Shown here one piece after another: positions 5,085-49,285 of a DNA stretch of 64,000 nt (the first letter of the stretch is position 1; each line of letters opens with the position of its first letter). Under the pieces are notes generated by a model. That model was not told the origin of the DNA, did no database searches, and saw nothing but the letters and a program-made list of their open reading frames with translations. The DNA lies in the NCBI GenBank assembly GCA_013239625.1, contig MU053881.1, forward strand, positions 15,616,373 to 15,680,372, written 5' to 3'. This DNA comes from Lama guanicoe. Lineage: Eukaryota. Made by a program: the position numbers and the translations under genes.

Positions 5085-5312
5085 TATCTTTTTTTTTTCT
5101 TTTTTACTGAACTAGAGTCAGTTTACAATGTTGTGTTAATTTCTGGTGAACAACATAATGCTCCAGTCATACATATATAATACATATACTCATTTTCATA
5201 TTCTTTTTTCATTATAGGTTACTTCAAGATATTGAATATAGTTCCCTGTGCTATGTAGAAGAAATTTGCTGTTTATTTTATATATAGTAGTTAGTATCTG
5301 CAAATCTCAAAC
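5085..5312 (-). mobile_element. Artiodactyl-type L1 3' end fragment
   Basis: Closely similar to 1890-2105 (cagtttacaat...atttctggtg...caagatattgaatatagttccctgtgctat); poly-T at left end. Confidence 0.75.
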
Positions 5313-5329
5313 TTAACTTTTTAAAAATT

Positions 5330-5354
5330 GATTTTATTTTTTAAATTAGGTTTA

Positions 5355-5386
<32 letters not shown>

Positions 5387-5466
5387 TTTTTAAGGGAGGC
5401 AGTGGGGATTGAATCCAGGACCTCGTGCATGCTAAGTATGCACTCTACCACTGAGCTATACCCTAC
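5330..5466 (-). mobile_element. tRNA-derived SINE with (TA)n tail
   Basis: ggggattgaatccaggacctcgtgcatgctaagtatgcactctaccactgagctataccc. Confidence 0.85.
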
Positions 5467-6014
5467 TCCACCTCGAACTTCACTTTTAAACACTATTAAC
5501 AGATACAAAATTCAACAGGCACAAAAAGTAAACAACATAAACTACCTTCCTCTTTCACCCATCATGGCCCCCTAGTTGCCTTCCCCATGGGAGCAAGTTG
5601 TTTCTGTTTCCCTGCCAAGAGCATCTTTGTCCATATGAGGAAATCCTCATTATCTCTTCTTTTTCTCTGCAGACTGAAGCTTCCTGCCCAGAGAGATTTG
5701 CACCTTGCTTTTTCCTTCACAAAGTATCTGGAAGGTCTTCCCACACTGTCAGCATTGGGATGCCCTATTCTTTTGCATAGCCGTGTAATATTCCATGCTG
5801 ACAATGGCCATTGTTTATTCAATGAATCCCCTGTGGCTGGACATTGAGCTTGCTTCTAACTGAATGCTGTTACAAACAGTGCTTTAAAAAATCAGTAACA
5901 TGATATAGGTATCATTCCTGGAAGGCTCTTTTGCTAGAAGGAGTCTTGCTGAGTTTCAGGGTAATTTCTTCAGCTTCATCTGATCCCCTCCATAGGGCTG
6001 GGTCATTTCCACTC

Positions 6015-6498: not shown

Positions 6499-6685
6499 TG
6501 TTGGCCATTCATATTTCTTCTTTGGTGAAGTGTCTATTCAAATCTGTTGCCCAATTTCTTATTGAGTCATTTGTCTTATATTATTGAGTTATAAGAATTA
6601 TTTATATATTCTAGATACAAGTATTTTGTTTATTTAATATATGTATTGCAAATATTTTCTCCTGATCTGTGTCTTTTTAAAAAAA

Positions 6686-6820
6686 TTTTTTTTTGCAGGA
6701 GAGGTGATTAAGTTTATTTAATATATTTATGTACCATTATTTTTAATGGAGGTATGGGGATTGAACCCAGGACCTTGTGCATGCTAAGCACACACTCTAC
6801 CACTGAGCTATATACTCCCC
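6686..6820 (-). mobile_element. tRNA-derived SINE
   Basis: ggggattgaacccaggaccttgtgcatgctaagcacacactctaccactgagctata. Confidence 0.85.
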
Positions 6821-7659
6821 ACCTCCAATCTGTATCTCACCTTTCTGTTTTCTCAGTGGTGTTATCTGAAGAGCACAATGATAAAGTCTAATTCATCAAT
6901 GTTTTCCAGCTAAGATAACTTTGCCTACCGTAAGTTTGCAAAATTTTTCTACTATGGTTTTTTAAAATGTCTTATAGTTTTAGGTTTTGCATTCAGGTCT
7001 GTGATCGATTTTGAGTTAATTTTGTGTATGACGTGAAGTAAAGATTGATGTTAATTGCTTTCCATATGATGTCTAGTTGTTCCAACACTATCTGTTGAAA
7101 AGACTTTCCTTTCCTCCATTTAATTGTCTCAGTATCTGTGTCAAAAATCAACTGGCTATATTTATATGGGTCTATTACTCTAGTCTATTCTGTTTTGTTG
7201 ATCCATCTTTTCATCAGTACCAAATTGTCTTGATTACTGTAACTCTGTAGTAAGCCTAGAAGTCAGGTAGAATAATTTCATCTTCTTTTTAAAAGTTACC
7301 CTGGCCCTTTTCAGTTCTATAGGAATTTTAAAAGTCATTGACAGTTTCTACCCCCAAAAATTCTGCTGAATTTATATTGGAATTTCACTGAATCTATAGG
7401 TCAGAAGAAGAGAACTGATATCATAATACTATTGAGTTTTCCAATCCATGAACATGGTATATCTTCCTGTTTATTTAAATCTTGATAAATTTCTCTTAGC
7501 AGTATATGTAGCTTTTAGTGTAAAGATCTTAGACTTTTTTTGGTTGGATTTATTCCTAGGTATTTTATCTTTTTTGGTGCTGCTATAAATGGAATTTAAT
7601 TTTTTTTCATTTTTCAATTGTTTTCTGCTATATATAAAAATTCAATTGATTTTTTAAGA

Positions 7660-12346: not shown

Positions 12347-24581
<12,235 letters not shown>

Positions 24582-24891: not shown

Positions 24892-25793
24892 TTTAAGCCT
24901 CTTTCATCTTCCCATCTTCTCATGGCTTGGCCCTGAGCTTCTTATCTCATTTCCAGAAGGAACATTATGTAGCTTTAAATATATGATCTCAGGCTTCTTT
25001 TCCCTCTTCCCTCTTTAGCTGGAGGAAGCCAAGGACAAGAGCAGCTGCCCTGGCTGAAATTCATTTTTGGGGGGAACCTGTGTGACTGGGATTGTGTAAG
25101 AGGCCAGAGAAGGCTGAGGTCCTGGTCGACCCTAACCGAACCTGAGTGTCCCAGGGCTTCAGTTTTTCTGCCTACACACTAGAGCCCTTTCTATCCTGAC
25201 CAGAGGATCGCACAACTGATGACAATGGAGGCTGACAGAAACTTTTCAGCAGTTGAAGGAAGGAAAGGCAGTCTTGGTAGAGGGAACAGCATGGCGAGAG
25301 TAAGGAGGCTCTGAGTATACAGGTTAAGAGCTCAGGTGTTGGAGCCCATGGTTCTGCCACTTATTTGGTCTGTGATGGTGGGTGAGTTGTTTCTCCTCTC
25401 TGAGCCTCTGTTCCATCCTCTTACAATGGGCAATAGTGTTGGCCCTTCGGTGGTACAAAGTCAACTTCTGGAGGCTTGTGAAAAGGCATTTTGTGCAGGT
25501 TAAGCCCCCATTGCTTCTTCACACCTGCCAGCAATGCTTTTCTGCCACTTTTGCCTCTTTGGAAAACTTTTATTCACCTCTCAAAACCCCAGCTATCACC
25601 TCCCTGCAGCTCTCCCTGGGGTTCTCCCACAACTGCCAGCCAGCCCTGTACTTCCTTCTGACCCTTGGACAGGGGTGGGGTCTGCATTCAGCTCTGTCTC
25701 CTCTGACCTGGAGGCTCCTTGAGGGCTGGGTTGGGGTGGGCAGAGAGAGGACTCTGGAAGTGTTTGTTGAATGAATAAAGAAGTTCAGGGGTT

Positions 25794-25950
25794 GGAGGAG
25801 GGTATAGCTCAGTGGTAAAGTGTGTGCTTAGTATGCATGAGGTCTTGGGTTCAATTCTCCAGTACCTCCATTAAAAAGTAATAATAATAAATAAATAAAC
25901 GAACCTAATTACCACCTCCCAAATAATAAAAATATAAAAAGAATAACAAA
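25794..25950 (+). mobile_element. tRNA-derived SINE
   Basis: gagggtatagctcagtggtaaagtgtgtgcttagtatgcatgaggtcttgggttcaattctccagtacctcc with A-rich tail. Confidence 0.88.
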
Positions 25951-26829: not shown

Positions 26830-27084
26830 TTTTTTTTTAGCAGAGGTACCGGGGATTGAACCCAGGACCTTGTGCATGCTAAGCATGCTCTCTGCCACAC
26901 TCTACCATTGAGCTAGACTCTCCCCCTGAAGACAACAAGATTCTGTAGTGTTTTTTGTTTTTGTTTGGGGGGAGGGAGGAGGTAATTAGGCTTATTTATT
27001 TTTTTATTTAATGGAGGTACTGGGGATTGAACCCAGGACCTCTTGCATGCTAGGCACACATTCTACCACTGAGCTATACCCCTA
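26830..27084 (-). mobile_element. Two adjacent tRNA-derived SINEs (26830-26926 and 26950-27084)
   Basis: Two copies of ggggattgaacccaggacc...ctacca(c/t)tgagcta. Confidence 0.88.
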
Positions 27085-27561
27085 CTCCTACAAGATTCTG
27101 AATGTCCCTGGTCTCAGCTGTCTGCCTGCCTGCCACCAGCATCCTGCGGAATGATTATTTCTCAGTTCATTTCTTTCACCTCTTTAAAATGGTTAAAAAA
27201 AAAAAAAGACTCCACAACCAGTGGTCCCCTGGGAGAGATGTGCCCAAGGAAGGAGGAGAAACCATGGTGGTTTTGCGCTCATTTCAGCCTTTCTATTATC
27301 AGTGTTGTGGCTGGATCAGCTCTTGGAGTTCTTATTACGACTGCAAGATGCCCTTCAGCAACAACCAACAGGAAACTTGGAGAAAATCAAAATGTATTAC
27401 GTACAGGACGTGGAAATTAGACAGCACACCTGGGGCCATAGAACCAGGTCACAGGTAGACAGAGAGCATTATGGGCTTGGGGTCCTGCTTTTATTAGGGT
27501 CAAAAGTGAGGGCCTAGTGTCCCCAGACTCAATCTTTATTGGTGAACTTATTTAAGAAAAG

Positions 27562-27681
27562 TTTTTGGAGGGGAGGTAATTAGGTTTATACATTTATGTT
27601 TTAAATGGAGGTACTGGGGATTGAACCCAGGACCTCATGCATGCTAAGAATGCGCTCTACCACTGAGCTATAACCTGCCCC
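27562..27681 (-). mobile_element. tRNA-derived SINE upstream of INSL3
   Basis: ggaggtactggggattgaacccaggacctcatgcatgctaagaatgcgctctaccactgagctata. Confidence 0.88.
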
Positions 27682-27914
27682 GCCACTGGGGAATTTAAAT
27701 GTGAGAATGGGGATTTCAAACACAAGGAGAGGAAAAATCAAGTGGTGAGTTATGGAAATCAACCAAGATGTCTGAAACAAAGGCAGCTGAGTTGAAGAAG
27801 GTGGCCTGGCTCTGTGTAGTGACATTGGAGGGCCATCTTTGAAGCTAATGCCCCAGCAATCAAAGCTTAAGTCAGGTACTCCTTTTACAAGAAAGAGAAA
27901 ACCCAGCATCAGGG

Positions 27915-28020
27915 GTTCCCTGACCCTGCCCTTGGCCTTGTCCCTGGGCCGATCTCCGAGAATGCTTTGTCCCTTCTCCAAGGCCCCCAGCTGGGGCGGG
28001 CTGGGCTCCTATAACAGGGG
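27915..28020 (+). promoter_or_regulatory. INSL3: INSL3 proximal promoter: SF-1/NR5A1-type sites, GC box, TATA
   Basis: TGACCCTG 27921-27928, GGCCTTG 27934-27940, CCAAGGCC 27978-27985, GGGGCGGG 27993-28000, TATAA 28010-28014. INSL3 is an established SF-1 target in Leydig and theca cells. Confidence 0.8.
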
Positions 28021-28053
28021 GATCCTCACTGGGGCCGGGTACCTCCCGCCGCC

Positions 28054-29331
28054 ATGGACCCCCGCCGGCTCTCCTGGGCGCTGGTGCTGCTGGGCCCGGC
28101 CCTGGAGCTTGCCCTGGGCTCCGCGCCCGCCCAGGAGGCCCCCGAAAAGCTGTGCGGCCACCACTTCGTGCGCGCGCTGGTGCGGCTGTGCGGGGGCCCG
28201 CGCTGGTCCCCCGAGGACGGGCGACCTGTGGCTGGTGGCGACCGTGAGTGAGGGCGGGCGAGGACTGTGCTCTGGGGCCTCTGGGTGTGTTGGGGGTGGG
28301 TGCATGCGGGCGTAGATGGAGATTGGGGCAAGCGGGAGGGTCTGCATGTATGTTCGGGGGTCCACTTGCCAATTGCAGGGTGTGCGGTCCCCTGCCCTGG
28401 GGGAATCAGTGCGAGGCGAACCAGGCAGAATCTTAACAAGTGTACAGTTAGATCTTGTCTTTATTTACAATTTCAATATTTTGAGCATCACGAATTTTTG
28501 TGTTAATTTTGATTTTTAAATATTGCATTAAAACATAATTGATCTTGGTTGTTGAGGTTTTTTGGCGCCCCCTTAAACTGTGCACTGGAGGCCAGAGACT
28601 GGTTCTCCTCGCCCTAGTCCTGGCCCTGGTGCAGAGGGTATCAAACAGGTTTGTGCGCACGTCTGTCACACGCGTGTGTGTCCGGTGTGTGTGAGTCTGT
28701 GTGACACAGGTACAGATGGGTGTGCAGGGGCACACGTGGAGGGGATGTGAGGGTGTGTGCCTGCGTCTATGTGTGCCCACTGCCTGCACACGCTGCACAT
28801 GTATGTTATGTGTCCCCTGTCCCACTGTCCCCTTACTATCTTCTGCTCTGTGAAGTGCCTGTGCGGTCTTATGCTGGGTGGCACATGGGAATGGCCATAG
28901 CTGGGGACTTGAGTGTGGGTGTGGGTGGAGAGTGCACACATCTGGACAGGGGATTCAATCCGTGCCTGCTATACAGTAGGTGCTTCATAAATGGTCAGTC
29001 TACTTATGTGCATGATGAGTGTTTGGTGGGTCACACAGCAGGGTGTGAGCTGCAGTTGTGTGTGCAGTGTATGTGTGGGGTCCTCTGGGGTACCCGCTCC
29101 ATGCTGAATTCCTCCCTGTCCCCAGGTGAGCTGCTACGGTGGCTGGAAGGAAAACATCTCCTCCATGGGCTGGTGGCCAATGGGGACCCCATGCTGATAC
29201 TCGCCTCACCGCCCCTGCCCCAGGCCTCTCACCATCACCACCACCGCCGGGCAGCTGCCACCAACCCTGCCCGCCACTGCTGCCTCAGTGGCTGTACCCG
29301 GCAAGACCTGCTGGCCCTCTGTCCCCACTGA
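28054..29331 (+). CDS. INSL3: Insulin-like 3 (relaxin-like factor) prepropeptide, 131 aa, 2 exons
   Basis: Exons 28054-28243 and 29126-29331 (190+206 nt). Signal peptide, B chain [21 protein letters not shown] peptide, RR cleavage site, A chain [32 protein letters not shown] at 29632-29637. Confidence 0.97.
28397..28628. mobile_element. hAT-type MITE (MER96-like) in the INSL3 intron
   Basis: Imperfect terminal inverted repeats (gcgaggcgaaccag / ctggttctcctcgccctagtcctggccctg) around an AT-rich core with ttttttggcgcccccttaaa. Family name from memory. Confidence 0.6.
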
Positions 29332-30119
29332 ACCCTTCTGGGGCGTGGCTTTGGAGGCACCTGAGACCTAAAGGAATCTGGTCTGGCAAGCTCCTGATGC
29401 CACATAACACCATGAAGCACCATGTCTGGGAGGAGGCTGTTGGTTACCTCTCAAAACAAGGTGCTCACCACCTCCCCCAGGCCACCTGTCCTCTCTGGGG
29501 CCAACTTGGAGGATCCTTGGGTTTTTGGAGACGCCAGATACCAAAGTTCAAACATTCTCACCTCAGAGGAGCCCCAAGTGCCCCACTCCCTTGCATTTGT
29601 TGACACCCCATTTGCTGTCTCCTCCATAGTAAATAAATAAGATGCCTGCAGAATCCAAAGCAACTTTTTGCATTTTCTCAAGACAACGGGACCAGCCACA
29701 GGCCACAGTCAGCCTTCACGTGGGACTGTCCTCCCGGCAGCCACAGACCCACCAACACTTACAGAAACTTAACAATTGGATGGTCATCACAATACAAAGT
29801 AGGGAAGCTGAGGTCTAGGGAGGTAGCTGCTTGCCAAGGTCAGACAAGGAGGGAATGGCCAAGTGCAGGATTTGAAGCCAAGTCTCTGTCATGATTCATG
29901 TGTCATAACCTCACTTAATGCCCACTTATCAGTAGACATACCACACAGCCGTCTGAATGAGTCACAGTAAATATTTATTCATCCAACTCTCACCATTCTT
30001 TTCACTTGCATCCTCCCTTCATCCTGAGATGGGAACTGGACATACGACCCTCTTGAAAAAAATGACAAGGCATTTGAAGACGTCATCTGTTCACATGTAT
30101 ATTAACTTTCCTAAGGCCT

Positions 30120-30500
30120 CTGTAAGCTCTGCCTCCACCTTCACGTCGTCTTCTTTCCTGTGCCTCTCTCTGTGTTCATTTCCTTCTTTTTAAATTTTAT
30201 TTATTTTATTTTGGGGGGGAGTACTTAGGTTTTTATTTATTTTAACAGAAGGACTGGGGATTGAACCCAGGACCTCCTGCATGCTGAGAACACACTCTAC
30301 CACTGAGCTATACTCTCCCCTCTCATTTCTGCCTCTTATAAAGATACTCTTATTGGATTCAGAGCCCACCTCAATCCAAGATGATCACATCTCCATCTCC
30401 ACCTCAATCACATCTGCAAAGACCCTATTTCCAAATAAAGCCATATTCTGAGGTTCTGGGTGAACGTGAAATTTTGTGAGGCACTATTCAATCCAGTACA
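30120..30500 (-). mobile_element. MaLR LTR (MLT1-like) interrupted by a tRNA-derived SINE (30186-30320)
   Basis: attggattcagagcccacc...cacatctgcaaagaccctatttccaaataaag...attcaatccagtaca is a typical MLT1 signature; the SINE sits inside it. Confidence 0.75.
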
Positions 30501-31641
30501 GCTGGGGAGAAGCACGCTCGCCCGAGGGCAATGGGGAGCCACAGACGGTGTGCAATCAGGGGCAGGATGAGTTCAGATCTACCTGGTAGAAACCCCTGCA
30601 GCCCCTGCCTCATCCAGATTTGCCTCCTCTTGCTTGGATGATGCCTCAGCCTCCACCATCCTTCCCAACAGTCCCCACAGGAGCCACAGGGCTTCTTTAA
30701 ACTTAAAAATCAATCATGTCATTTCCTTGCTCCAAAGGTGCCATCACCTTCAAAATAATCCTGTCTCTCTTCACCCCAGCCCACAAAGCCCCACGTGGCT
30801 AGTTGCTGTGACCTCCTGTCCCCTCTTCCTGCATCTCCTCCTCACTCACCAAGCTCCAGCCACAGCCTCCTGGCTGCAATTTGAATGCTTCCAGATCATC
30901 CCACCTCAGGGCCTTGCCGTGCCCTCTGTCTAGAACATCCTTCTTCCACTTCTCCCCAAGGCCATAGCCTCCTCCTTCAGTCCCAGTCCCTTGACCTCCT
31001 GGCTAGCACTTGACCCGATCACTGTGTGTCTTCATTTTAATTCTCCTCAAAGCTCTTACCATTTATGGTAACTTCCTATTTGATAGTTCACAGGTTTGTT
31101 TCATCACAATAAGCTGAGTCAGTGCCCAGTGACCTTTCCCATGGGGCTAGGAGGAGGCGTACAGGGCAAGGTGTTTAGCACACAGTAGGTATACAATCAA
31201 TACTGAAAGAAGGGAGGTAAGGAAGCGGATAGAGAACAACAGAATTGCTGTCTCAGCAGGAGAGGTGAGCCCGGTGAAGAGAGGGGAGGTGGGTGGTGGC
31301 TGGCGTGGGATTCAGAAGATGTCTTGCCAGAAGCAGGTGGGACCAGGCAGCCAGGAGCTGTTTCACCCCTGTGCCAATCTCTCTTGAGCCTGCCATCAGT
31401 CTTGGGAGAGGATGAGCTGGGGGCAATAGGGAGCCATGGAGGGTGTGTGAGCAGGGGAAGGATGATGTCAGACCTGCCTGATAGAAACTTTGATATCCCT
31501 TACTTTATCCATATCCTGTTTTCACTCCTGTGTATTTTCTTCTGGAAATGAGAATTTTATGGATAAATGTAGACTGATCTGTATTAAAACTTGTAAATCA
31601 CTAAAAAAGAAAAAAAAGACCTCTAAGTCTTCACAAAACAT

Positions 31642-31647
31642 TTTATT
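31642..31647 (-). terminator. Candidate B3GNT3 polyadenylation signal
   Basis: AATAAA on minus, ~1 kb after the stop, followed by a U-rich downstream element (A run at 31603-31617 on plus). Confidence 0.6.
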
Positions 31648-32651
31648 CCCTGAGGACCTACTTACTCGCCATGCTCACTCTGACATCTGAGGTTCCCCTC
31701 GCCACTGCCCCAACGCCTGCGAAGCCTAAGTCTCAGGCACCTGTCTGATCCCAGGAGGGCTGGGGGTCAGGGGTTACCAGCTCACCTGGATCTCCTCAAT
31801 CTGAAAGATACACTGGGGTGGGGGCCAGTCCTAGGTCCAGAGAGCTAAGGTCCCCCAAGTACTTGAATCTCCCTCTTTTCTGGGCACTGAGGTGAGTCTG
31901 TGCACATGCTCTGGCCCCAGTACTGTTCCCTGAATTCTTGGGGCACACATGTGTGGAGACTGGGTCCTGCCACGGACTACAGAAATTCTAAGCTCCGTAG
32001 CCTGAGACAGATAACTGCCCAGTGCTTCTACCATTTGAGCACTTGATGCCACAAGCAGGGAGGGGGCGGTCCTGTTCACAGCCCCTCTGGTGGCTCCTAC
32101 CATCTGAGGGGTCCTAGACCTGGGAGGGAGGGAAAACAGAACCCCTCTTTCCCCAGCTGAAAAGTGCTTATCATTTCAGCTACACATGGACCCAGGAGTT
32201 CTCAATTGGCCTTGAACGTGGCCGGCACTCACTCACCATGGCAGGTTCACCACCAAGGAGAGGCTGGTCACTGCTTAGGGTCCAGCCCATGATCAAGGTC
32301 AGGGCTGGGAAGTGGGACATCGCCTGAAATGGAATGGACGCAGCAGCAGCAGCAGCAGCTGGGACCCTGGCAGAAGTGCGTCTGCCATTAGCTGCCAGGG
32401 AAAAAGACGACCCCTCCAGCTGAGAGTCTAGGGAGGATGATGGAACACAGCGTGGGTAGTACTAGGGGGCGGGGTTTGAAGGATGTGTAGGAATTTACCA
32501 GCCAGACAATTCACTCATCTAACCCTCCCTGGTGCTCTCCTAGGCCCCGCCCACTTAGGAGGACAAAGGTCTTAGCTTCCTGGGAGGAAGATGTTGCCCT
32601 TCTCATGGGGATGGAGACAAGAGCCTTGAGGCCTGGGGCCCTGACACCACC

Positions 32652-35203
32652 TCAGTAGATCTGTGTCCGCTTGCCACAGGTGAGGTTGGGCTGGCTCAGC
32701 GCATCCCACATAAGCAGCATCTCATAAGGCAAGAAGCGATGTACCAGCAGCAGCTCTCGGTAGAAGCAGGGGTCAAAGGAGGACAGGCGGCTGGAGGGGG
32801 CCTGAACGCCAGATGTGCGGATACCACTATGTGAAGCAGGCTGCAGGCCCTCCTGCTTCAGGCACATGCCCAGGAAGACATCATCAATGGGGAAGAGTTC
32901 GAGGGTGGGGGCAGCCCGGCGCAGGGCGGTGGCCGTGAAGCGGGACAACAGGAAGCCACCCCCCCCACAGTAGGGTGGGTAGTGTTCCTCCTTTGTCACC
33001 ACCTTTGGCACATAGTACTTGCTCCAGGGAGACCGGATAGGGCCCACATCGTGGATCAGTTGTCCCACGAAGAGGTGGTGGTCGGGGTCATGGTCCTGCA
33101 GGTAGGAGACCATGTTGTCTGTGTGTGCAAAGACGTCATCATCTCCATTGAGCACGAAGCTGGCATTGGTGCACCGCGTCTCCTGCCACTGTAGGAAGAG
33201 CACCTGCAGGTGGGGTGGACAGGGTATGCAAGCATGATGCCTGGGATCATCAGTTTTGGGTCTCTGTTGGCCATCCCAGCCCAGTTAGACCAGGCAAGGC
33301 TAGCCCCACTCTGGGGTGGCCTTTGCAACTAATTGCCCCTCTATGCCACAGTTTCCAATTTACTAGACAGGACTCATTGTAGGAACCGCTTCCAGGTGTT
33401 GGGGATCTACAGAGATGATGCTCCACAAAGCACCAAGAAGTGCTCAAAAATTGTCACATTTACATTTATTGCTATTCCTTCTGACTGCCTGGCCAAGCAC
33501 TGCTGTTAAATAATTACTTATATGATTGTTATTTAACATCTACTTCCCCCACCAAATTCTGGGCTCCTCCTGCATGGGGGCTGTGTCTCTCCTCTGTGTC
33601 ATCTCCCCAGGACTCAGGGTGGGGTCAACATTTCATAGGCACTGGATTCATATTTGTCAAGTTGACGTTATATCACATGCTTGTGTTTTGAGTTAAGAAC
33701 AAGCCATGTTGGGAGGTGCTGAGCTCTCTGCTCACCTTGGCTTCATGACCTCTATAACTTTTGCTGCATGCAGAGCACTGTCCTCAGTGCCCACCCTATC
33801 TTGAATCCCTAATACAATTTTAGGAGGCAGGTGTGGTCCTCAACCCCTTTTACAGATGAGAAAGTAGAGGCTCTCCAGGGAAGGTGCCTTGAGCAAGGTT
33901 ATACAACAGACAAGTTGTAACTCAAGGTCTTGAACCCAGACCTGTCTGTACTTACTATGAGCAGGAACCTGCACTGGCCCCTCAACTCTCGGCTCTACTC
34001 AGCTTGGCCCACTCCCACCTGGGTGGGTCCTTGGAGCCTTCACTTCCTCCTCTGTGAATGCACAGGATTCTCTACCTCTCATGGTTTCCTGTCCACCTAC
34101 TGCACAAATCTGGGCCTCATGGGGAGAGAGACCAGAACAAAGAAATAAAATGTCTGTTCAGTGCTCCCCTGCCCCCACCCCATTGCCAAAGTTATTTGAG
34201 CACTTGGCACTGGTTCAGGTGCCTTAGAAATAATCATCTCATGTAATCCACACAGCATCCTTCAGAGGTGGGTGGGTCAAACTAATATCCCCTTTCCCTG
34301 ATGAGGAGACTGAGGCACAGAGAGGTGAATAGTAATGCAGGACAAACAGCTAGTAAGAAGCAGAGCCTGGATTTGAATTCAGGTCATCAAGCCTTCGAGA
34401 ACCAGGCTTGTAAGCTCCCACCACTCAGTCCCTTCTCCCTGCTCCTCCTAGAGGAAGAAGACTTCAGGTCACCATGAGGACAGTAGAGGGGACGGGGTGA
34501 GGTTGATGGGGGCTTCTGGTCCCCAGGGTCCCTAAGAGGAGGTGGTGGCAATTTGGGCAGGAAGCCTGGGTGGCCCCTATCAGGTTACCGCCCCCCACCC
34601 CGAGCCCACCTGCTTGAGCGTGAGGTTGAAGAATGAGTCATAGAAATCCCACTGCAGGATGTCACCATGGGTCTGCGCCTCTATGGCCAACAGCCGGTTG
34701 ACCTTGCGGGCCTCCAGTGGGTTGGGGTCTGTGCCCACGAGGAAAATGCGGCGCAGCTGGACGCCGTGCACCTGGCGTTCGTGGCCCCACGTGCGCCGCA
34801 CCAGCTCCCGGCGCTCGTAATTCCTGGGCGAGGACTTGATCACTAGCAGCAGGAAGACTGGCTGTGCACACTTGTCCGGCGGCACGTCCAGCAGCAGCTG
34901 GAAGTGGCGGCAGTGTTTGTACAGCAGGAAGTTGCGTATGTGCTGCGGCTGCCCCGCAAAGTCCTGCAGGGCCGCCATGGAGGTGTTGGCCAGGCAGGGG
35001 GCAGGTGGTGGGCGGGAGGGTGGCGAGGGCCAGACCAGAGCCATGGGGGTGACCGGCGGCGCAGACGGCGGCAGAGACAGTGGCTCCTTCAGGCCCAGGC
35101 AGGTGGGTGGTGACGTGTGCAGACTGAAGACGAGGAGGAGGATGAAGGCGCTCAGAGCCACAACCAGGCCCACCTCTACCCGCAGAGGCCGGAGATACCT
35201 CAT
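32652..35203 (-). CDS. B3GNT3: UDP-GlcNAc:betaGal beta-1,3-N-acetylglucosaminyltransferase 3 (GT31 family), 381 aa, 2 coding exons
   Basis: Coding exons 35203-34610 and 33203-32652 (594+552 nt), exon 2 acceptor at 35253. Type II transmembrane anchor; motifs [57 protein letters not shown]. Confidence 0.97.
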
Positions 35204-38200: not shown

Positions 38201-38235
38201 AGGGACACTCTCATTAAGATCCTGTGAAAATTTAA

Positions 38236-38445
38236 GGGGAGGATATAGCTCAGTGGTGGTGTGCACAGTTAGCATGCATGAGGTCCTGGGTTCAATCCCC
38301 CGTACCTCCATTAAAATGAATAAATAAACCTAATTACCCACCTCCCAGAAGTAAACAAATAAGTAAAAATTTTAAAACGTTAAAAAATAAGTTTAAAAAG
38401 TGAAACCTTTAAAAAAAAAAGTACTTTGCAAAAAAGAAAAGAATT
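38236..38445 (+). mobile_element. tRNA-derived SINE with target-site duplication
   Basis: ggggaggatatagctcagtgg...ggttcaatcccc; TSD tgtgaaaattta at 38223-38234 and 38446-38457. Confidence 0.9.
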
Positions 38446-41595: not shown

Positions 41596-41742
41596 TTTTT
41601 TTATTTTCAATTTTTTGGTTTGTTTTCAGGGGAGGGGATAATTAAGTTTATTTATTCATTTATTTTAATAGAGGTACTGGGGATTGAACCCAGGACCTCA
41701 TGCATGCTAGGCATGCACTCTACCACTGAGCTATACCCTCCC
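41596..41742 (-). mobile_element. tRNA-derived SINE
   Basis: Near-consensus copy flanked by tgattta(c/t)gctttt duplication. Confidence 0.9.
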
Positions 41743-42904
41743 TGACCCCTGATTTATGCTTTTAAGAAGTCCTCTGTGGTCATGGAAGGGGAAAGGATAA
41801 TCAAGGCAGGAGTAGGGGCCAGGGCAGAGATAGGCAGAAGAATTTCGGGGCCTGGATAGGAGCTGGCTAGCGAAGGGCAGGAACATGGGTGAGTTCAGCA
41901 AATAGGTTGAAGGAAGTCATCCATGTTTACAGCCTGGATGTGGGGGATGGAGTAGGATGGACCAGGGAGAACAGAATGTGAGATGTCACTGAGCCTTTCA
42001 CATGGGGACGTTATGGGGTAGCAAGTGACCTAACTGTGGTGTCTGGGTCTGGCAGGTAAACCAGGAAGGCCCATCAGGCATTTGATGGACGAGCACATCC
42101 ATATATCGCTTGCACCTGGCAGGGCTTCCTCTGCATTCCTCCTTACCGACCATAGTGCCACTATGTCATAGCAGTGACATCTGGGCTGACTCTCAGGGCC
42201 CCTCACCCTGCACCCTGCAATACCAGCCAATCCTGTTCCGGGCTGTTTGCCCTCCATGCACTGTTGCAATTTCATTACTCAGTGCCTGTTTCCTCCAGTA
42301 CACACAACAAAGCCACTTGTTTTCATTGGCTAAGACTGAAGAGCCTCCCCCTGGGGTTTGCTCAACTTCCTTCTCCCCCAGCCTCAATGACCTCTGCCCC
42401 CTCTTCTCCACTCCAGTCACACCAGCCTCTTCACAGGTACTTTAAACCCCCAGGCTCAGCCCTGCCACAGGGCCTTTGCACCTGCCATTCCATCCACCTG
42501 GGATGCCTTTCCCTCCTGCTCCTCCCTCTGGTTTTCCTTGATCATCAGGCCTCATCTCCTTAGAGGCCCCAATCTCACAGCTAAAACACCCCACCCAGGC
42601 TCTGCTATCCTCTGCTACTCCTACCACCATTGGACAAATCTCACTTCTCTCCTGTCCATCTTCCCCACCAGCCTAGAGCCCCAGAGGCGGGGCCCAGCGT
42701 CTTGTCCCCGACAGCTGTGTGGCCAGGTGACACTCACTGCTGTTTATTGCACAAGGGGAAAATGCTAATAATGACTCACATATTGGCTATTTCCTTATGC
42801 CTCACATCAGCGGCCACTGTTCCCTACCTGGAACCTTGTGGGCCTTGGAGGATGACGGTGATTCAGTCCTGATAAGGCAGAAAGCACATCCGTGGAGCCA
42901 AGAG

Positions 42905-43295: not shown

Positions 43296-46054
43296 GGCTG
43301 ACCACTTAGCAGAATTAATAAGGGACCCTGCCTGCTGGTGACAGTGCTCTGGTCCCCCATCCTCTACCTACAGCCCCAAGGGACAGCCAAGGCCTGGTAA
43401 GGCCCCAGGCATGTATGGCTCCAGGCATCTCTGTCCTCCTCATCTTGTTCTTGTCACTGTCCCTTGGGAGGCCAGGAAGGCAGAGAGGCTGAGACACATG
43501 GGGAAGTGAGACTGTCACACAGTCCAGATGGCAAGGCTCCGCCTGCTAGCACCCTTGGGGCCTGGACCAGAACCCCGCTACTGCCCTGCACTAGTCCACA
43601 CACAGTGGGAGCCCACCTGACACTGACTTGGAAGCCTCTGTCACATGATTCCCCATGTGACACCCTCAATTTCCAGATGAGGAAACTGAGGCTTGGAGAG
43701 GGTGAATCCTGGGTCCCTCTCCAGGCCTGTCAGACACACACCCACCTCCCCATCTCCCAACCACAGCCTCGGGGACCCACACGCCTGGGTGCCCCACAAC
43801 CAGCCCAGCCGCTGGAACTCAGTTTCCGAATTCAGAAAATGAGAGCTCATTCCCCACTTCACCCTGCAGCCTTCAGGACAGAGAGAGATGATGGCCTGGG
43901 GGAAGGAAATCCTGGCTACTGACCATCCGCCAACTCAGGGCAGGTAGCTGGGCTCCTATCCCCTCGCCTCAGCATTCTCGTCTGCAAAGCCGGCTGGTGT
44001 CAGCTGCTCACGGTTCACCGCCCCCCTGGTGCTAGATATCAGCTCCACTGCAGTCTTCAGTGCTCCTCCATGCCTCACCTACACTCAGCTGGGCTGTGGA
44101 TGGGGATGGGGGCACGGAATATTCTGGGGCTGCCAAAAAGCAAGGCGAGGGGTAGGGGGTGACAGGAGAACCTCATTTGTGTGCATAATGGCCCAAGCCC
44201 TTGGAAAGGCTAGAGGACCATGCGGTGGCCTCCTCTCCAAGTCACAGATGTATGAAGCACCGCCAATGACGACCAGCAGTTACTGTTAACCACTCGCACA
44301 CCTGCAACTGCTATGCGCTGAGCGTCTGGTTTGTGCCATGCCTTGATCTAGGTTCTGGGCACCCAGCCAAGATGATAGAGGGAAACCACAGTGGAGCTGA
44401 TGGGCTCGTGCAGGACAGAGGCAGCAAATAAGCCAGTTTTCACCAGAGAAGGGCAAGTTCTGGGGTTGGAGATTCAACGACAAGGGAGAGTCGAGAGAGT
44501 GTGAACCACTGGCCTGCGGACGAGCCCCTGTGACTCTTACTGAGCCTCTCAAGGAGGCCCCCGGGTCCAGTTCCCAGGTGGGAAAGGTAGGCACAGGGAG
44601 GGAGCCCACCTACCAGGGAACAGGTGGCTGGGATTTGAGCCCTGAGCAGCTGGACTGGAGAGTGATCCCTCACCAGTTCACACCGGCTTGCCCCTTTTTA
44701 TGAGGAGCATGAGGTACGTACGTAAACAGGGAAAGAAAAGAAGGAAAAGTCCAATAAAGATAATTTCTTAGAAGGGCTTATTATCGGCTGAACCTCCTTT
44801 AGTAAAACGATGTGTGCAAAAAGATTTTATGCAAACATACACCCAACATTTGCTTCAGTGAACCCCTGGGCGTGGAAGAAGTGTTGGGGATGGGGGAAGG
44901 GTAACACACTCCTTTTAGACCCTCAAGTCCTCAGTTTCCAGGTCCCAGGGCTCGTACTGGATGACTCACTGGATGAGCCGAGCTTTCCCCACTGCAGAAA
45001 CTTCCGAGGTCTGGGATGGGTCCAGGAAGGGATCTAGGGCTGGACATAGACCCCTGATTAAATGCCAGCCTGGCCACAGCTGAGCCTCAAAGGGCATCTC
45101 TTTCCTAGATGGGGAAATGAAGGCCGGGGGAGGCAGGCTGTGCATCACAGTTCAGCCTTGGACTCTTCCCGTGATCCTGGGCTGACTCAGGAAATTGGAC
45201 CTCTGGGAAGCTCCTGGAGGACACCCATAACTTCAGCCTGGTCAGGCCTTGTGCCACATTATTTTCTCTCATGCAAAGAGAAACCTCACTAATGACACCC
45301 AACGAGTCATGTAATCAAGATTAGAGTTAACACACCAGGTCATGTACAACCTTTCTACTAAGAGCTTACTTACACTCCACACTTGCAGAAACTGAGAGGT
45401 AGGGCTGTTTGCCTCATTGTTATGGCTAGGTAAACAGGCACACAGAGGCCAAGGAACTCATTCAAGAAAGGTCAAGTGGGAGCCCAATTCCTGCCTTTAA
45501 CTACCCCCTTGGTGGGACCCCCTTCAGTTCGCCATGTTGGTAGTGAATTACCCATCATGGGGGTGGGCAATCAAGTGGAGCCAGACTCCCATCAGGCAGA
45601 GGGACCACAACGGGCATCCTTCCTGGCTCATAAGGAGTAGCGGGCAAGTTGTTGCCCACTCTGGGCCTCAGAGGCCAGTAGCAGGAAAAGATGATACTCG
45701 GTGATGGGTCCCTGGGCCAAGCCAGCATGTCTAGAAATTCCTCAGGCTCTGGTCTGGAGCAGAGAAGGTTCAAGGTCCCTCCTTGGTTCCCCCACACCCA
45801 GAGTACCTTGCAGGAATCAATCTCCTCACCCTGGGTGTGAGGGAGAGGGAAAGGGAGGGTGTCCAGTCTGGGCTGGGCAAACATGAGCTGTCACCTAGGC
45901 AGCTAAGAGAGGGAGGCCCAGTGACTTGACGCAGCGGCCACACCTCTTCCTCTGAATTCTTCAGCCTGGTGTGGTGGTCACCTTGGGAACTGACAGGGCA
46001 GCCAGAAGTGGTGGCACCCTATTTAAAAAAACAACTTTTTTTTAAGGAAAAATG

Positions 46055-46142
46055 AGGTGAGGGATATAGCTCAGTTGGTAGAGTGCATGGTAGCATGCAC
46101 AAGGTACTTGGTTCGATCCCCAGTACCTCCATTAAAAAGAAA
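46055..46142 (+). mobile_element. tRNA-derived SINE
   Basis: gggatatagctcagttggtagagtgcatggtagcatgcacaaggtacttggttcgatccccagtacctcc. Confidence 0.85.
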
Positions 46143-46839
46143 AGAAGTGGTGGTCCCAGGGTCAGCCTCAAAACCAGAGAACTCCCTCTAGGCCCTCAAT
46201 CCCAGATCTGAGTGACAGGAGGCCCTGCCTGGGGCAAGGGCAGGGAAGGGGAGAGGAAGTGGGTCCTCAATTTTCCCATCTGCAGAGTGGCCATGAAAAA
46301 ACAAATCTGACTCAGAGGGAAAGTTGGTCCAGAACCTGGGAAGGTGGCTAATGATGTAATTGTAATAATAATTATTATTAATATAATTAAGGTGATGGCA
46401 GACATTCTGTGGGCCCAAGTGAGTGAACGTCTGACATTTCACTTTCATCACAATTCCATACCATGAAGTCCATTTGACACATAACAAAACTGAAGCTCAG
46501 AGACCTAAAGCCACTTGCTTGAGGTTCCCCAGGGGCCAGAAGTGTCCCATCATAAAAGCTTTCACTGGCTAACACCTCAGACATTCTCACAAAAGCCAAG
46601 TCATTGTCCTCCCTCACAGAGGGGAAACTGAGGTGCATTCAGAGACCAGGAGCAACCAGAAGCAAGCCACACAGCCAGGCAATGGCTGAGCAGGAATCAG
46701 AATCCCAGGGGAACCCGTGAGCTGGGGTCCCCAGGCCAGACCCTGGCCCAGCCCCTGGCAGGGCTGGGGGTCAGCGGTGGTCCCCTCAAGAAACAATAAT
46801 AAACCCAACCTGAGAACCCGGCTGCTGTTCCCAGACTCT

Positions 46840-48609: not shown

Positions 48610-49285
48610 AGAATTCTATGACCCAGGAATTCCACTCCTAGGTATCTGCTCAAAAGAATTGAAGATAGGTGTTCAAACAAATCCTTGTACACCATATTCC
48701 CCAGCAGTGCTAGTCGCAATCACCAAAAGGTGGAAACAACCCAGAGGTCCATCAGCAGATGAGTGGATGAACAAAATGTGGTCCATCCCGAGGGGAGGGT
48801 CTAGCTCTGTGGTAGAGTGTGTGCTTAGCATGTATGAGGTCCTGGGTTCAATCCCCTGTACCTCCATTAAAAAATAAATAAACCTAATTGCCTCCCCCAC
48901 CAACAACAAAGAAAGAATAAAATGTGGTCCATCCCTACAGTGGAATCTGATTCAGCCATAACAAGGAGTGAAGCTCTGACACACCCTACAATGGTGGAGG
49001 AACCCCCAAAATAAAATGTCATGATGAATGAAAGAAGCAAGACATGAGGGGCCATGTGACATGGGATCCCATTTAGGTGAATTGTCCAGAACAAGGAAAT
49101 CCATAGAGTCAGAAAGCAGATTAGTGATCACCAGGAGCTGGTGGGAGTTGGAGAATGAGAGTGGGCTTCCTTTTGGGGTGATGGGAATGTTCTGGAACTA
49201 GACAGAGGTGATGGCTACACATTGTGAATGTGCTATATGCCACTGAATTGTTCACCTGAAACTTAATTTTCTGTTATGTGAATTT
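48610..49285 (+). mobile_element. L1M 3' fragment with an inserted tRNA-SINE (48791-48918)
   Basis: tatgacccaggaattccactcctaggtat...tggaaacaacccagaggtccatcagcagatgagtggatgaacaaaatgtgg. SINE flanked by a perfect 17-bp TSD aaaatgtggtccatccc (48773-48789, 48919-48935). Confidence 0.88.

Follow-up and report, generated by a model that had tools for sequence, protein, structure and literature searches.

In a stretch of 64,000 nucleotides (nt) of Lama guanicoe DNA (GenBank assembly GCA_013239625.1, contig MU053881.1, positions 15,616,373 to 15,680,372 of the forward strand; hereafter the window, position 1 being its first letter), an intron/exon junction of the JAK3 gene occurs a second time, in the likely 3' untranslated region (3'UTR) of a neighbouring gene on the opposite strand, presumably B3GNT3. 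It is quite probable that about 148 nt of JAK3 were copied once, as a small templated patch, into the 3'UTR of this B3GNT3-type gene, and that the copy is now an inert, neutral relic. The parts of the copy and of its source are as follows.

32425-32509, plus strand: first part of the copy, an L2-type repeat fragment with a strong phrase at 32471-32509 and an eroded left part at 32425-32470, aligned to 19738-19817.
32510-32558, plus strand: second part of the copy, the unique 49 nt that close JAK3 intron 14 and hold its branch region, its pyrimidine tract and the AG, with 34 of 49 positions identical to 19820-19868.
32559-32572, plus strand: third part of the copy, the first 14 nt of the JAK3 exon (numbered exon 15 in the original prediction; EDKGL), with 12 of 14 positions identical to 19869-19882.
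19738-19882, plus strand: source segment, the last 131 nt of the intron and the first 14 nt of the exon, placed by the self-match of the window, the pairwise alignment and the L2-type profile.
19148-19868, plus strand: JAK3 intron before the copied exon, 721 nt; the frame of the upstream exon ends ...LAYALNYL at 19147.
19869-20001, plus strand: pseudokinase exon of JAK3 (133 nt, phase 0 to 1), with the donor GTAAGT after it; assigned from its frame and a paralogue search.

Comparison of the window with itself (blastn) aligned 32468-32572 with 19778-19882 at 82 of 105 identical positions and no gaps (E 2.6e-19), and a recount on the fixed diagonal returned the 80 of 102 identities that the original prediction had claimed for 32471-32572 against 19781-19882. 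Among the 88 non-self pairs at E<=1e-6, the 3'UTR of the B3GNT3-type gene takes part in just one, the JAK3 match; 85 pairs join members of a single short-repeat family, and the exceptions are the JAK3/copy pair, a pair between 1881-2106 and 5089-5313, and a 40-nt pair. The weaker similarity said to extend leftward to about 32424 was also recovered, with a gapped alignment reaching 32425/19738 by way of a left block (AGTCTAGGGA.GAT, 32425-32438 against 19738-19751, 13/14 identical) that lies beyond a 3-nt indel. The score of this block was reached by 4 of 2000 shuffles when these were confined within 5 diagonals of the core; taken as a free local alignment it is not significant, as 49 of 300 shuffles scored as well. 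On the right the similarity ends at 32572/19882, 14 nt inside the JAK3 exon. No significant similarity was found in the right flank past this point, and a rightward extension through CCCT.CTCATGG..ATG, beyond a gap of 24-27 nt, was rejected, its score being equalled by 134 of 300 and 868 of 2000 shuffles.

The whole alignment spans 148 columns with 145 aligned sites, 107 of them identical, and a single 3-nt indel. Across the aligned sites 28 transitions stand beside 10 transversions, an excess that is expected for true homology, and the Kimura two-parameter (K2P) distance between the copies is 0.34 overall and 0.27 in the core. The copy is colinear with its source, keeping the parental order of 131 nt of intron and 14 nt of exon, and the match spans the acceptor as had been proposed: both places read CTTAG/GA.GA.AAAGGTCT, with the slash at the splice boundary, and both translate as EDKGL. 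The two differences within the 14-nt exon part are both transitions and fall at third codon positions. We also considered a larger tandem duplication, its unit being 12.69 kb, and rejected it: past 32572 one reads the coding exon of the minus-strand gene itself, and further colinear JAK3 matches are absent.

The identity of the source and the direction of copying were established through the kinase paralogues. The plus-strand gene is JAK3, as its downstream exon scored 118 bits against JAK3 kinase-domain chains and 88 bits against JAK2 in matches to the PDB. When the copied exon was used as a protein query against the genome, four places were found, namely the window and three paralogues, and in all four an AG directly precedes the same glutamate codon. 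An acceptor at the same codon in all four JAK paralogues means that the exon start predates the paralogues, and the piece on the B3GNT3 side is therefore the derived copy; judging from these sequences, the copying must have run from JAK3 to the 3'UTR of the B3GNT3-type gene. The 721-nt JAK3 intron consists mostly of three same-strand L2-type pieces (19247-19314, 19380-19661 and 19729-19817, nhmmer), the last of which stops just 51 nt short of the acceptor.

The part of the copy beyond the repeat, comprising 49 nt of intron and 14 nt of exon, is identical at 46 of 63 positions (binomial P 1.9e-14) and is found at two genomic places. When the 2.05 Gb assembly was searched with patterns that fix 24 and 25 bases, at most 3 mismatches being allowed, the two places in the window were the only matches (controls, 0 and 1 matches). 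An 18-base pattern with at most 1 mismatch gave 8 extra genomic matches against 1 in the control, all with unrelated flanks, and a pattern for the acceptor gave 22 extra matches, likewise in unrelated surroundings, where its control gave 40. Scans of both copies against Rfam returned no family match, only sub-threshold chance rows lying outside the copies. A DNA search of the genome with a 161-nt stretch recovered only that stretch itself and missed the JAK3 copy; such a search is insensitive at 78% identity and was not used as evidence. The claim of a local duplication is thus supported, the unique 63 nt being two-copy in the genome and the source being fixed as JAK3 by the exon start of the paralogues. 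The opposite case, in which both segments belong to one repeat family with many equally good genomic matches, did not show up within the sensitivity of the pattern searches, which placed the 63-nt remainder at only two sites.

The first part of the copy belongs to a dispersed family that we take to be of the L2 (long interspersed nuclear element 2, LINE-2) type. With a profile built from 30 genomic family copies (nhmmer), the copy matched at 32471-32509 (model 322-360, E 8.4e-4) and JAK3 matched at 19729-19817 (model 272-358, E 7.9e-7). The family phrase TTTGAAG.ATGTGTAGGA.TT.ACCAG, with at most 1 mismatch, had 11 genomic matches, two of them the window copies, against 0 in a reversed control, and a motif of the family with at most 2 mismatches had 43 against 0. 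The original prediction had held that only the first 30 or so nt were L2-like and that the rest was JAK3-specific. The family profile together with the left block extends the repeat-derived part to about 85 nt (32425-32509), or some 57% of the copy; JAK3 specificity stands for the last 63 nt and fails for the additional repeat stretch.

The boundary of the repeat is itself shared. The nine other family members recovered by the phrase search match the window copies over 32464-32509 only, and after the equivalent of 32509 all nine run on with ...CCAGGCAGA.AAGG..., unlike both window copies. The two window copies leave the repeat profile at nearly the same spot, model position 358 in JAK3 and 360 in the copy. 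In a three-way comparison with the family consensus over 76 sites, 43 were identical in all, 15 were shared-derived by the window copies, 6 were private to the copy on the B3GNT3 side, 5 were private to JAK3 and 7 differed in all three; the consensus against which these sites were scored is noisy: outside the search pattern, members match it at only about 57% of positions. The 15 shared-derived sites, beside 6 and 5 private ones, indicate common descent and equal rates of change in both copies, and their excess over the private sites places the copying well after the repeat had settled in the JAK3 intron. The near-equal private counts give no hint of slower evolution in the repeat part of either copy. 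By these comparisons, the L2-type fragment on the B3GNT3 side is one that arrived second-hand within the JAK3 piece, apparently with no retrotransposition of its own.

The landing site is defined by two features of the minus-strand gene.

32652-33113, minus strand: last coding open reading frame (ORF) of the Galactosyl_T-family gene, with the stop codon at 32652-32654 (Pfam PF01762, E 1.1e-12).
31642-31647, minus strand: first canonical AATAAA after the stop of the B3GNT3-type gene, about 1 kb farther along; the copy lies between the stop and this signal.

An ORF farther upstream in the same gene also matches Pfam Galactosyl_T (E 3e-14). The gene is presumed to be B3GNT3 on the basis of the mammalian gene order JAK3-INSL3-B3GNT3, its position, its C-terminal peptide and the original prediction. 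The copy lies 80-227 nt past the stop codon, antisense to the gene, and no TTTATT or TTTAAT was found on the plus strand over 31648-32653. The interval 32424-32680 had been assigned to the B3GNT3 3'UTR as a whole; the copy does lie in the likely 3'UTR, on the opposite strand, and 32652-32680 proved to be the stop codon and the last codons of the gene. The Galactosyl_T-family coding sequence extends over 32652-35203 on the minus strand and comprises a frame at 34580-35203 and one at about 33200-32652. The gap of about 1.4 kb between them is an apparent intron within the coding region, following ...NLTLKQ. At 32343-32361, about 290 nt beyond the stop codon, the plus strand carries a short run of (CAG)n, which reads as CUG in the 3'UTR of the minus-strand gene.

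Part of this region (31000-33100) was found in 20 sequencing runs, none of which is recorded as RNA; 4 raw single-cell RNA runs were found by species label only. Fourteen small runs, sharing one organism label across six studies, each contained exactly 0.51 of the sampled words of this region, and six larger runs under another label contained 0.74-0.95 of them. These fractions may reflect a partial transcript, capture or a near relative.

Taken together, the JAK3 copy is likeliest to be the ordinary, tidy relic of a small templated duplication. A single old event would have copied about 148 nt of JAK3 to a site 12.7 kb downstream, in unchanged orientation, the copied piece carrying the tail of the L2-type fragment, the last 49 unique intron bases with the acceptor AG, and 14 exon bases. 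A short templated patch may have mended a DNA break, with nearby DNA or unspliced JAK3 RNA as the template; the copy would then have drifted without function about as fast as its source, and would be transcribed merely as a passenger of the 3'UTR. A templated break patch is favoured by the unspliced intron/exon junction together with the lack of a poly(A) tail. No run of A follows 32572, and inspection of both junctions by eye showed no repeat of 5 bp or longer, marks that age could have erased.

Known templated insertions offer the closest parallel. According to Onozawa and Aplan (PMC5110952), class 1 insertions carry poly(A) at the 3' junction together with a target-site duplication of 5 bp or more, and class 2 patches show microhomology, microdeletion or untemplated bases at their junctions when compared with the empty site. 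A class 1 insertion, mediated by LINE-1, does not match the JAK3 copy, which has neither an A-run nor a visible target-site duplication. Like the class 2 insertions described there (PMC5110952), the copy is a short piece from elsewhere, possibly intronic in such cases, that was inserted once, lacks a poly(A) tract and shows no evident duplication of the target site. The class 2 cases in that account (PMC5110952) are recent polymorphisms in humans, and comparison with an empty allele makes their junctions readable, whereas the JAK3 copy is old (K2P 0.27-0.34) and its junctions are unreadable; it also lies merely 12.7 kb from its source and in the same orientation. A plain switch of template at the DNA level, in the course of replication or repair, suits the copy equally well. 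Unprocessed pseudogene fragments and small intrachromosomal duplicates resemble it in holding contiguous parental intron and exon, nearby, on the same strand and in a decayed state, but the JAK3 copy is tiny (about 148 nt, 14 nt of it exon) and sits within the 3'UTR of another gene rather than between genes. LINE-2-type fragments such as are found in introns and 3'UTRs make up most of the JAK3 intron and the initial 85 nt of the copy, but the fragment on the B3GNT3 side differs from ordinary ones in having come within the JAK3 piece and not through retrotransposition. Among the papers listed for JAK3, B3GNT3 and INSL3 together, which by title are genome-wide association, copy-number, quantitative trait locus and expression studies, none has a title that suggests the duplicate.

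Several points weigh against the view that the copy is a neutral relic of one templated event. Between the copies, the L2 phrase (34/39) has been preserved better than the remainder (73/106), a difference for which we have no explanation. Pattern searches miss members whose divergence at the fixed positions exceeds about 12%, and a small, very old repeat family is conceivable. We infer transcription of the 3'UTR through the copy from poly(A) signals alone. The neutrality and age of the copy are estimated from two sequences and a noisy consensus in one species.

The better conservation of the L2 phrase (34/39, the best-kept part) and the closeness of the copy to the stop codon are the points that would suit a role in the B3GNT3-type gene itself, in which the copy would have been co-opted as a cis element of the 3'UTR, for example as a protein or microRNA (miRNA) site, in a way unconnected with JAK3. 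When located in 3'UTRs, L2 fragments can act as miRNA target sites (PMC6433296). The Rfam scans noted above gave no match for such an element. Nor is this phrase known to be the L2 segment from which the established L2 miRNAs derive, and a co-opted cis element appears unlikely.

The antisense role put forward in the original prediction is less likely again. In its fullest form, the B3GNT3-type mRNA or its nuclear precursor would pair in trans with the branch region, pyrimidine tract and acceptor of JAK3 and mask the acceptor, and the copy would be kept for tuning inclusion of the pseudokinase exon where the convergent neighbours are co-expressed. The complementarity extends over about 145 nt (107/145 same-strand identity) within the likely 3'UTR, and the predicted duplex has an energy of -173.6 kcal/mol, where 200 shuffles give -61.3 +/- 6.2 and a perfectly antisense strand gives -304.7; relative to the two self-folds, the net gain is -96.9 kcal/mol. 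Such an energy, however, is the automatic outcome of 74-78% identity; perfect pairing extends for 11 nt at most, or for 13 nt when G:U pairs are counted, and the 6 private changes in the copy against 5 in JAK3 show no sign that complementarity is being kept. The 3'UTR of a cytoplasmic mRNA is also a poor partner for a nuclear intron. There is precedent in the natural antisense transcripts of the trans type (trans-NATs) derived from pseudogenes, in which a gene fragment on the opposite strand gives an RNA complementary to the parent transcript (PMC2984423). The JAK3 case differs from these trans-NATs (PMC2984423) in that the complementarity is to an intron and acceptor and not to a mature mRNA, reaches only 74-78%, and has a putative action.

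The second proposed role concerns the plus strand, where a pseudo-exon would begin at the copied acceptor.

32559-32679, plus strand: proposed pseudo-exon, 121 nt; frame 0 is open, frame 1 has one stop and frame 2 has three stops; the donor-like sequence is CAGGTGAGG.

Read-through transcripts from JAK3 or the relaxin-like gene would splice in at the AG at 32557-32558 and out at CAG/GTGAGG (32679/32680), giving a cassette of the same phase. The sequence features are as they had been described, with 121 nt free of stops in frame 0 followed by CAG/GTGAGG and the phase change of the true exon, and the AG is preceded by a tract with 18 pyrimidines in 25 positions. Against its use, the donor is the reverse complement of Leu-Thr-Cys codons of the minus-strand gene, the phase match has a chance of one in three, and 40 stop-free codons are unremarkable in GC-rich DNA. 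The copied AG has a new AG 15 nt upstream of it, and plus-strand poly(A) signals at 29632, 30434 and 31583 come before the site. Such splicing seems very doubtful, and both the antisense and the pseudo-exon roles of the copy are judged improbable from sequence.

A further alternative, that one interspersed repeat inserted twice independently and that the whole match, including the apparent exon part, is repeat with no duplication, can appeal to the repeat-derived first 85 nt and to the further family fragments in the window, but we regard it as already refuted within the sensitivity of the pattern searches and hardly credible, given that 9/9 inspected family copies diverge after the common breakpoint, that the 63-nt remainder has no other genomic match, and that the last 14 nt are JAK3 coding sequence at an exon boundary older than the four JAK paralogues.

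Other elements of the window include a relaxin/insulin-like gene on the plus strand at 28000-29650, between JAK3 and the minus-strand gene, which we take to be INSL3 from the protein letters at the end of its ORF; a search of Pfam with a 65-aa piece of this gene gave no match. About 14 copies of one short interspersed repeat are present on both strands, 72-95% alike in pairs and far younger than the L2-type pieces, as found by self-comparison.

2829-2951, 5317-5481, 6673-6828, 17942-18042, 21737-21825, 25780-25943 and 26830-26925, both strands represented in the family: copies 1-7 of the short interspersed repeat.
26951-27091, 27551-27684, 30184-30322, 38235-38377, 41603-41752, 46054-46146 and 48790-48917, both strands represented in the family: copies 8-14 of the short interspersed repeat.

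A second two-copy direct match lies in the upstream JAK3 region, where 1881-2106 and 5089-5313 are 79.7% identical over 231 nt (E 5.8e-48); this pair may belong to a repeat family or be another local duplicate. Metagenome scans gave 0 matches with the back-translated C-terminal peptide of the minus-strand gene, and with the repeat-junction phrase a single contig that matched the 23-nt pattern only, by chance.

As a relic, the JAK3 copy provides a clean, datable case in which a piece of a gene with a working splice acceptor, together with a second-hand repeat, has landed in the 3'UTR of a neighbour, and it illustrates that a repeat fragment in a UTR can arrive without transposition. At present the copy matters little; it would matter if constraint across species, RNA pairing or splicing proved true. 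The pseudokinase exons of JAK3 are medically important, so a natural splice modulator of such an exon would, if real, be of interest, and a splice mask acting antisense in trans would then have stemmed from a 150-nt patch of break repair.

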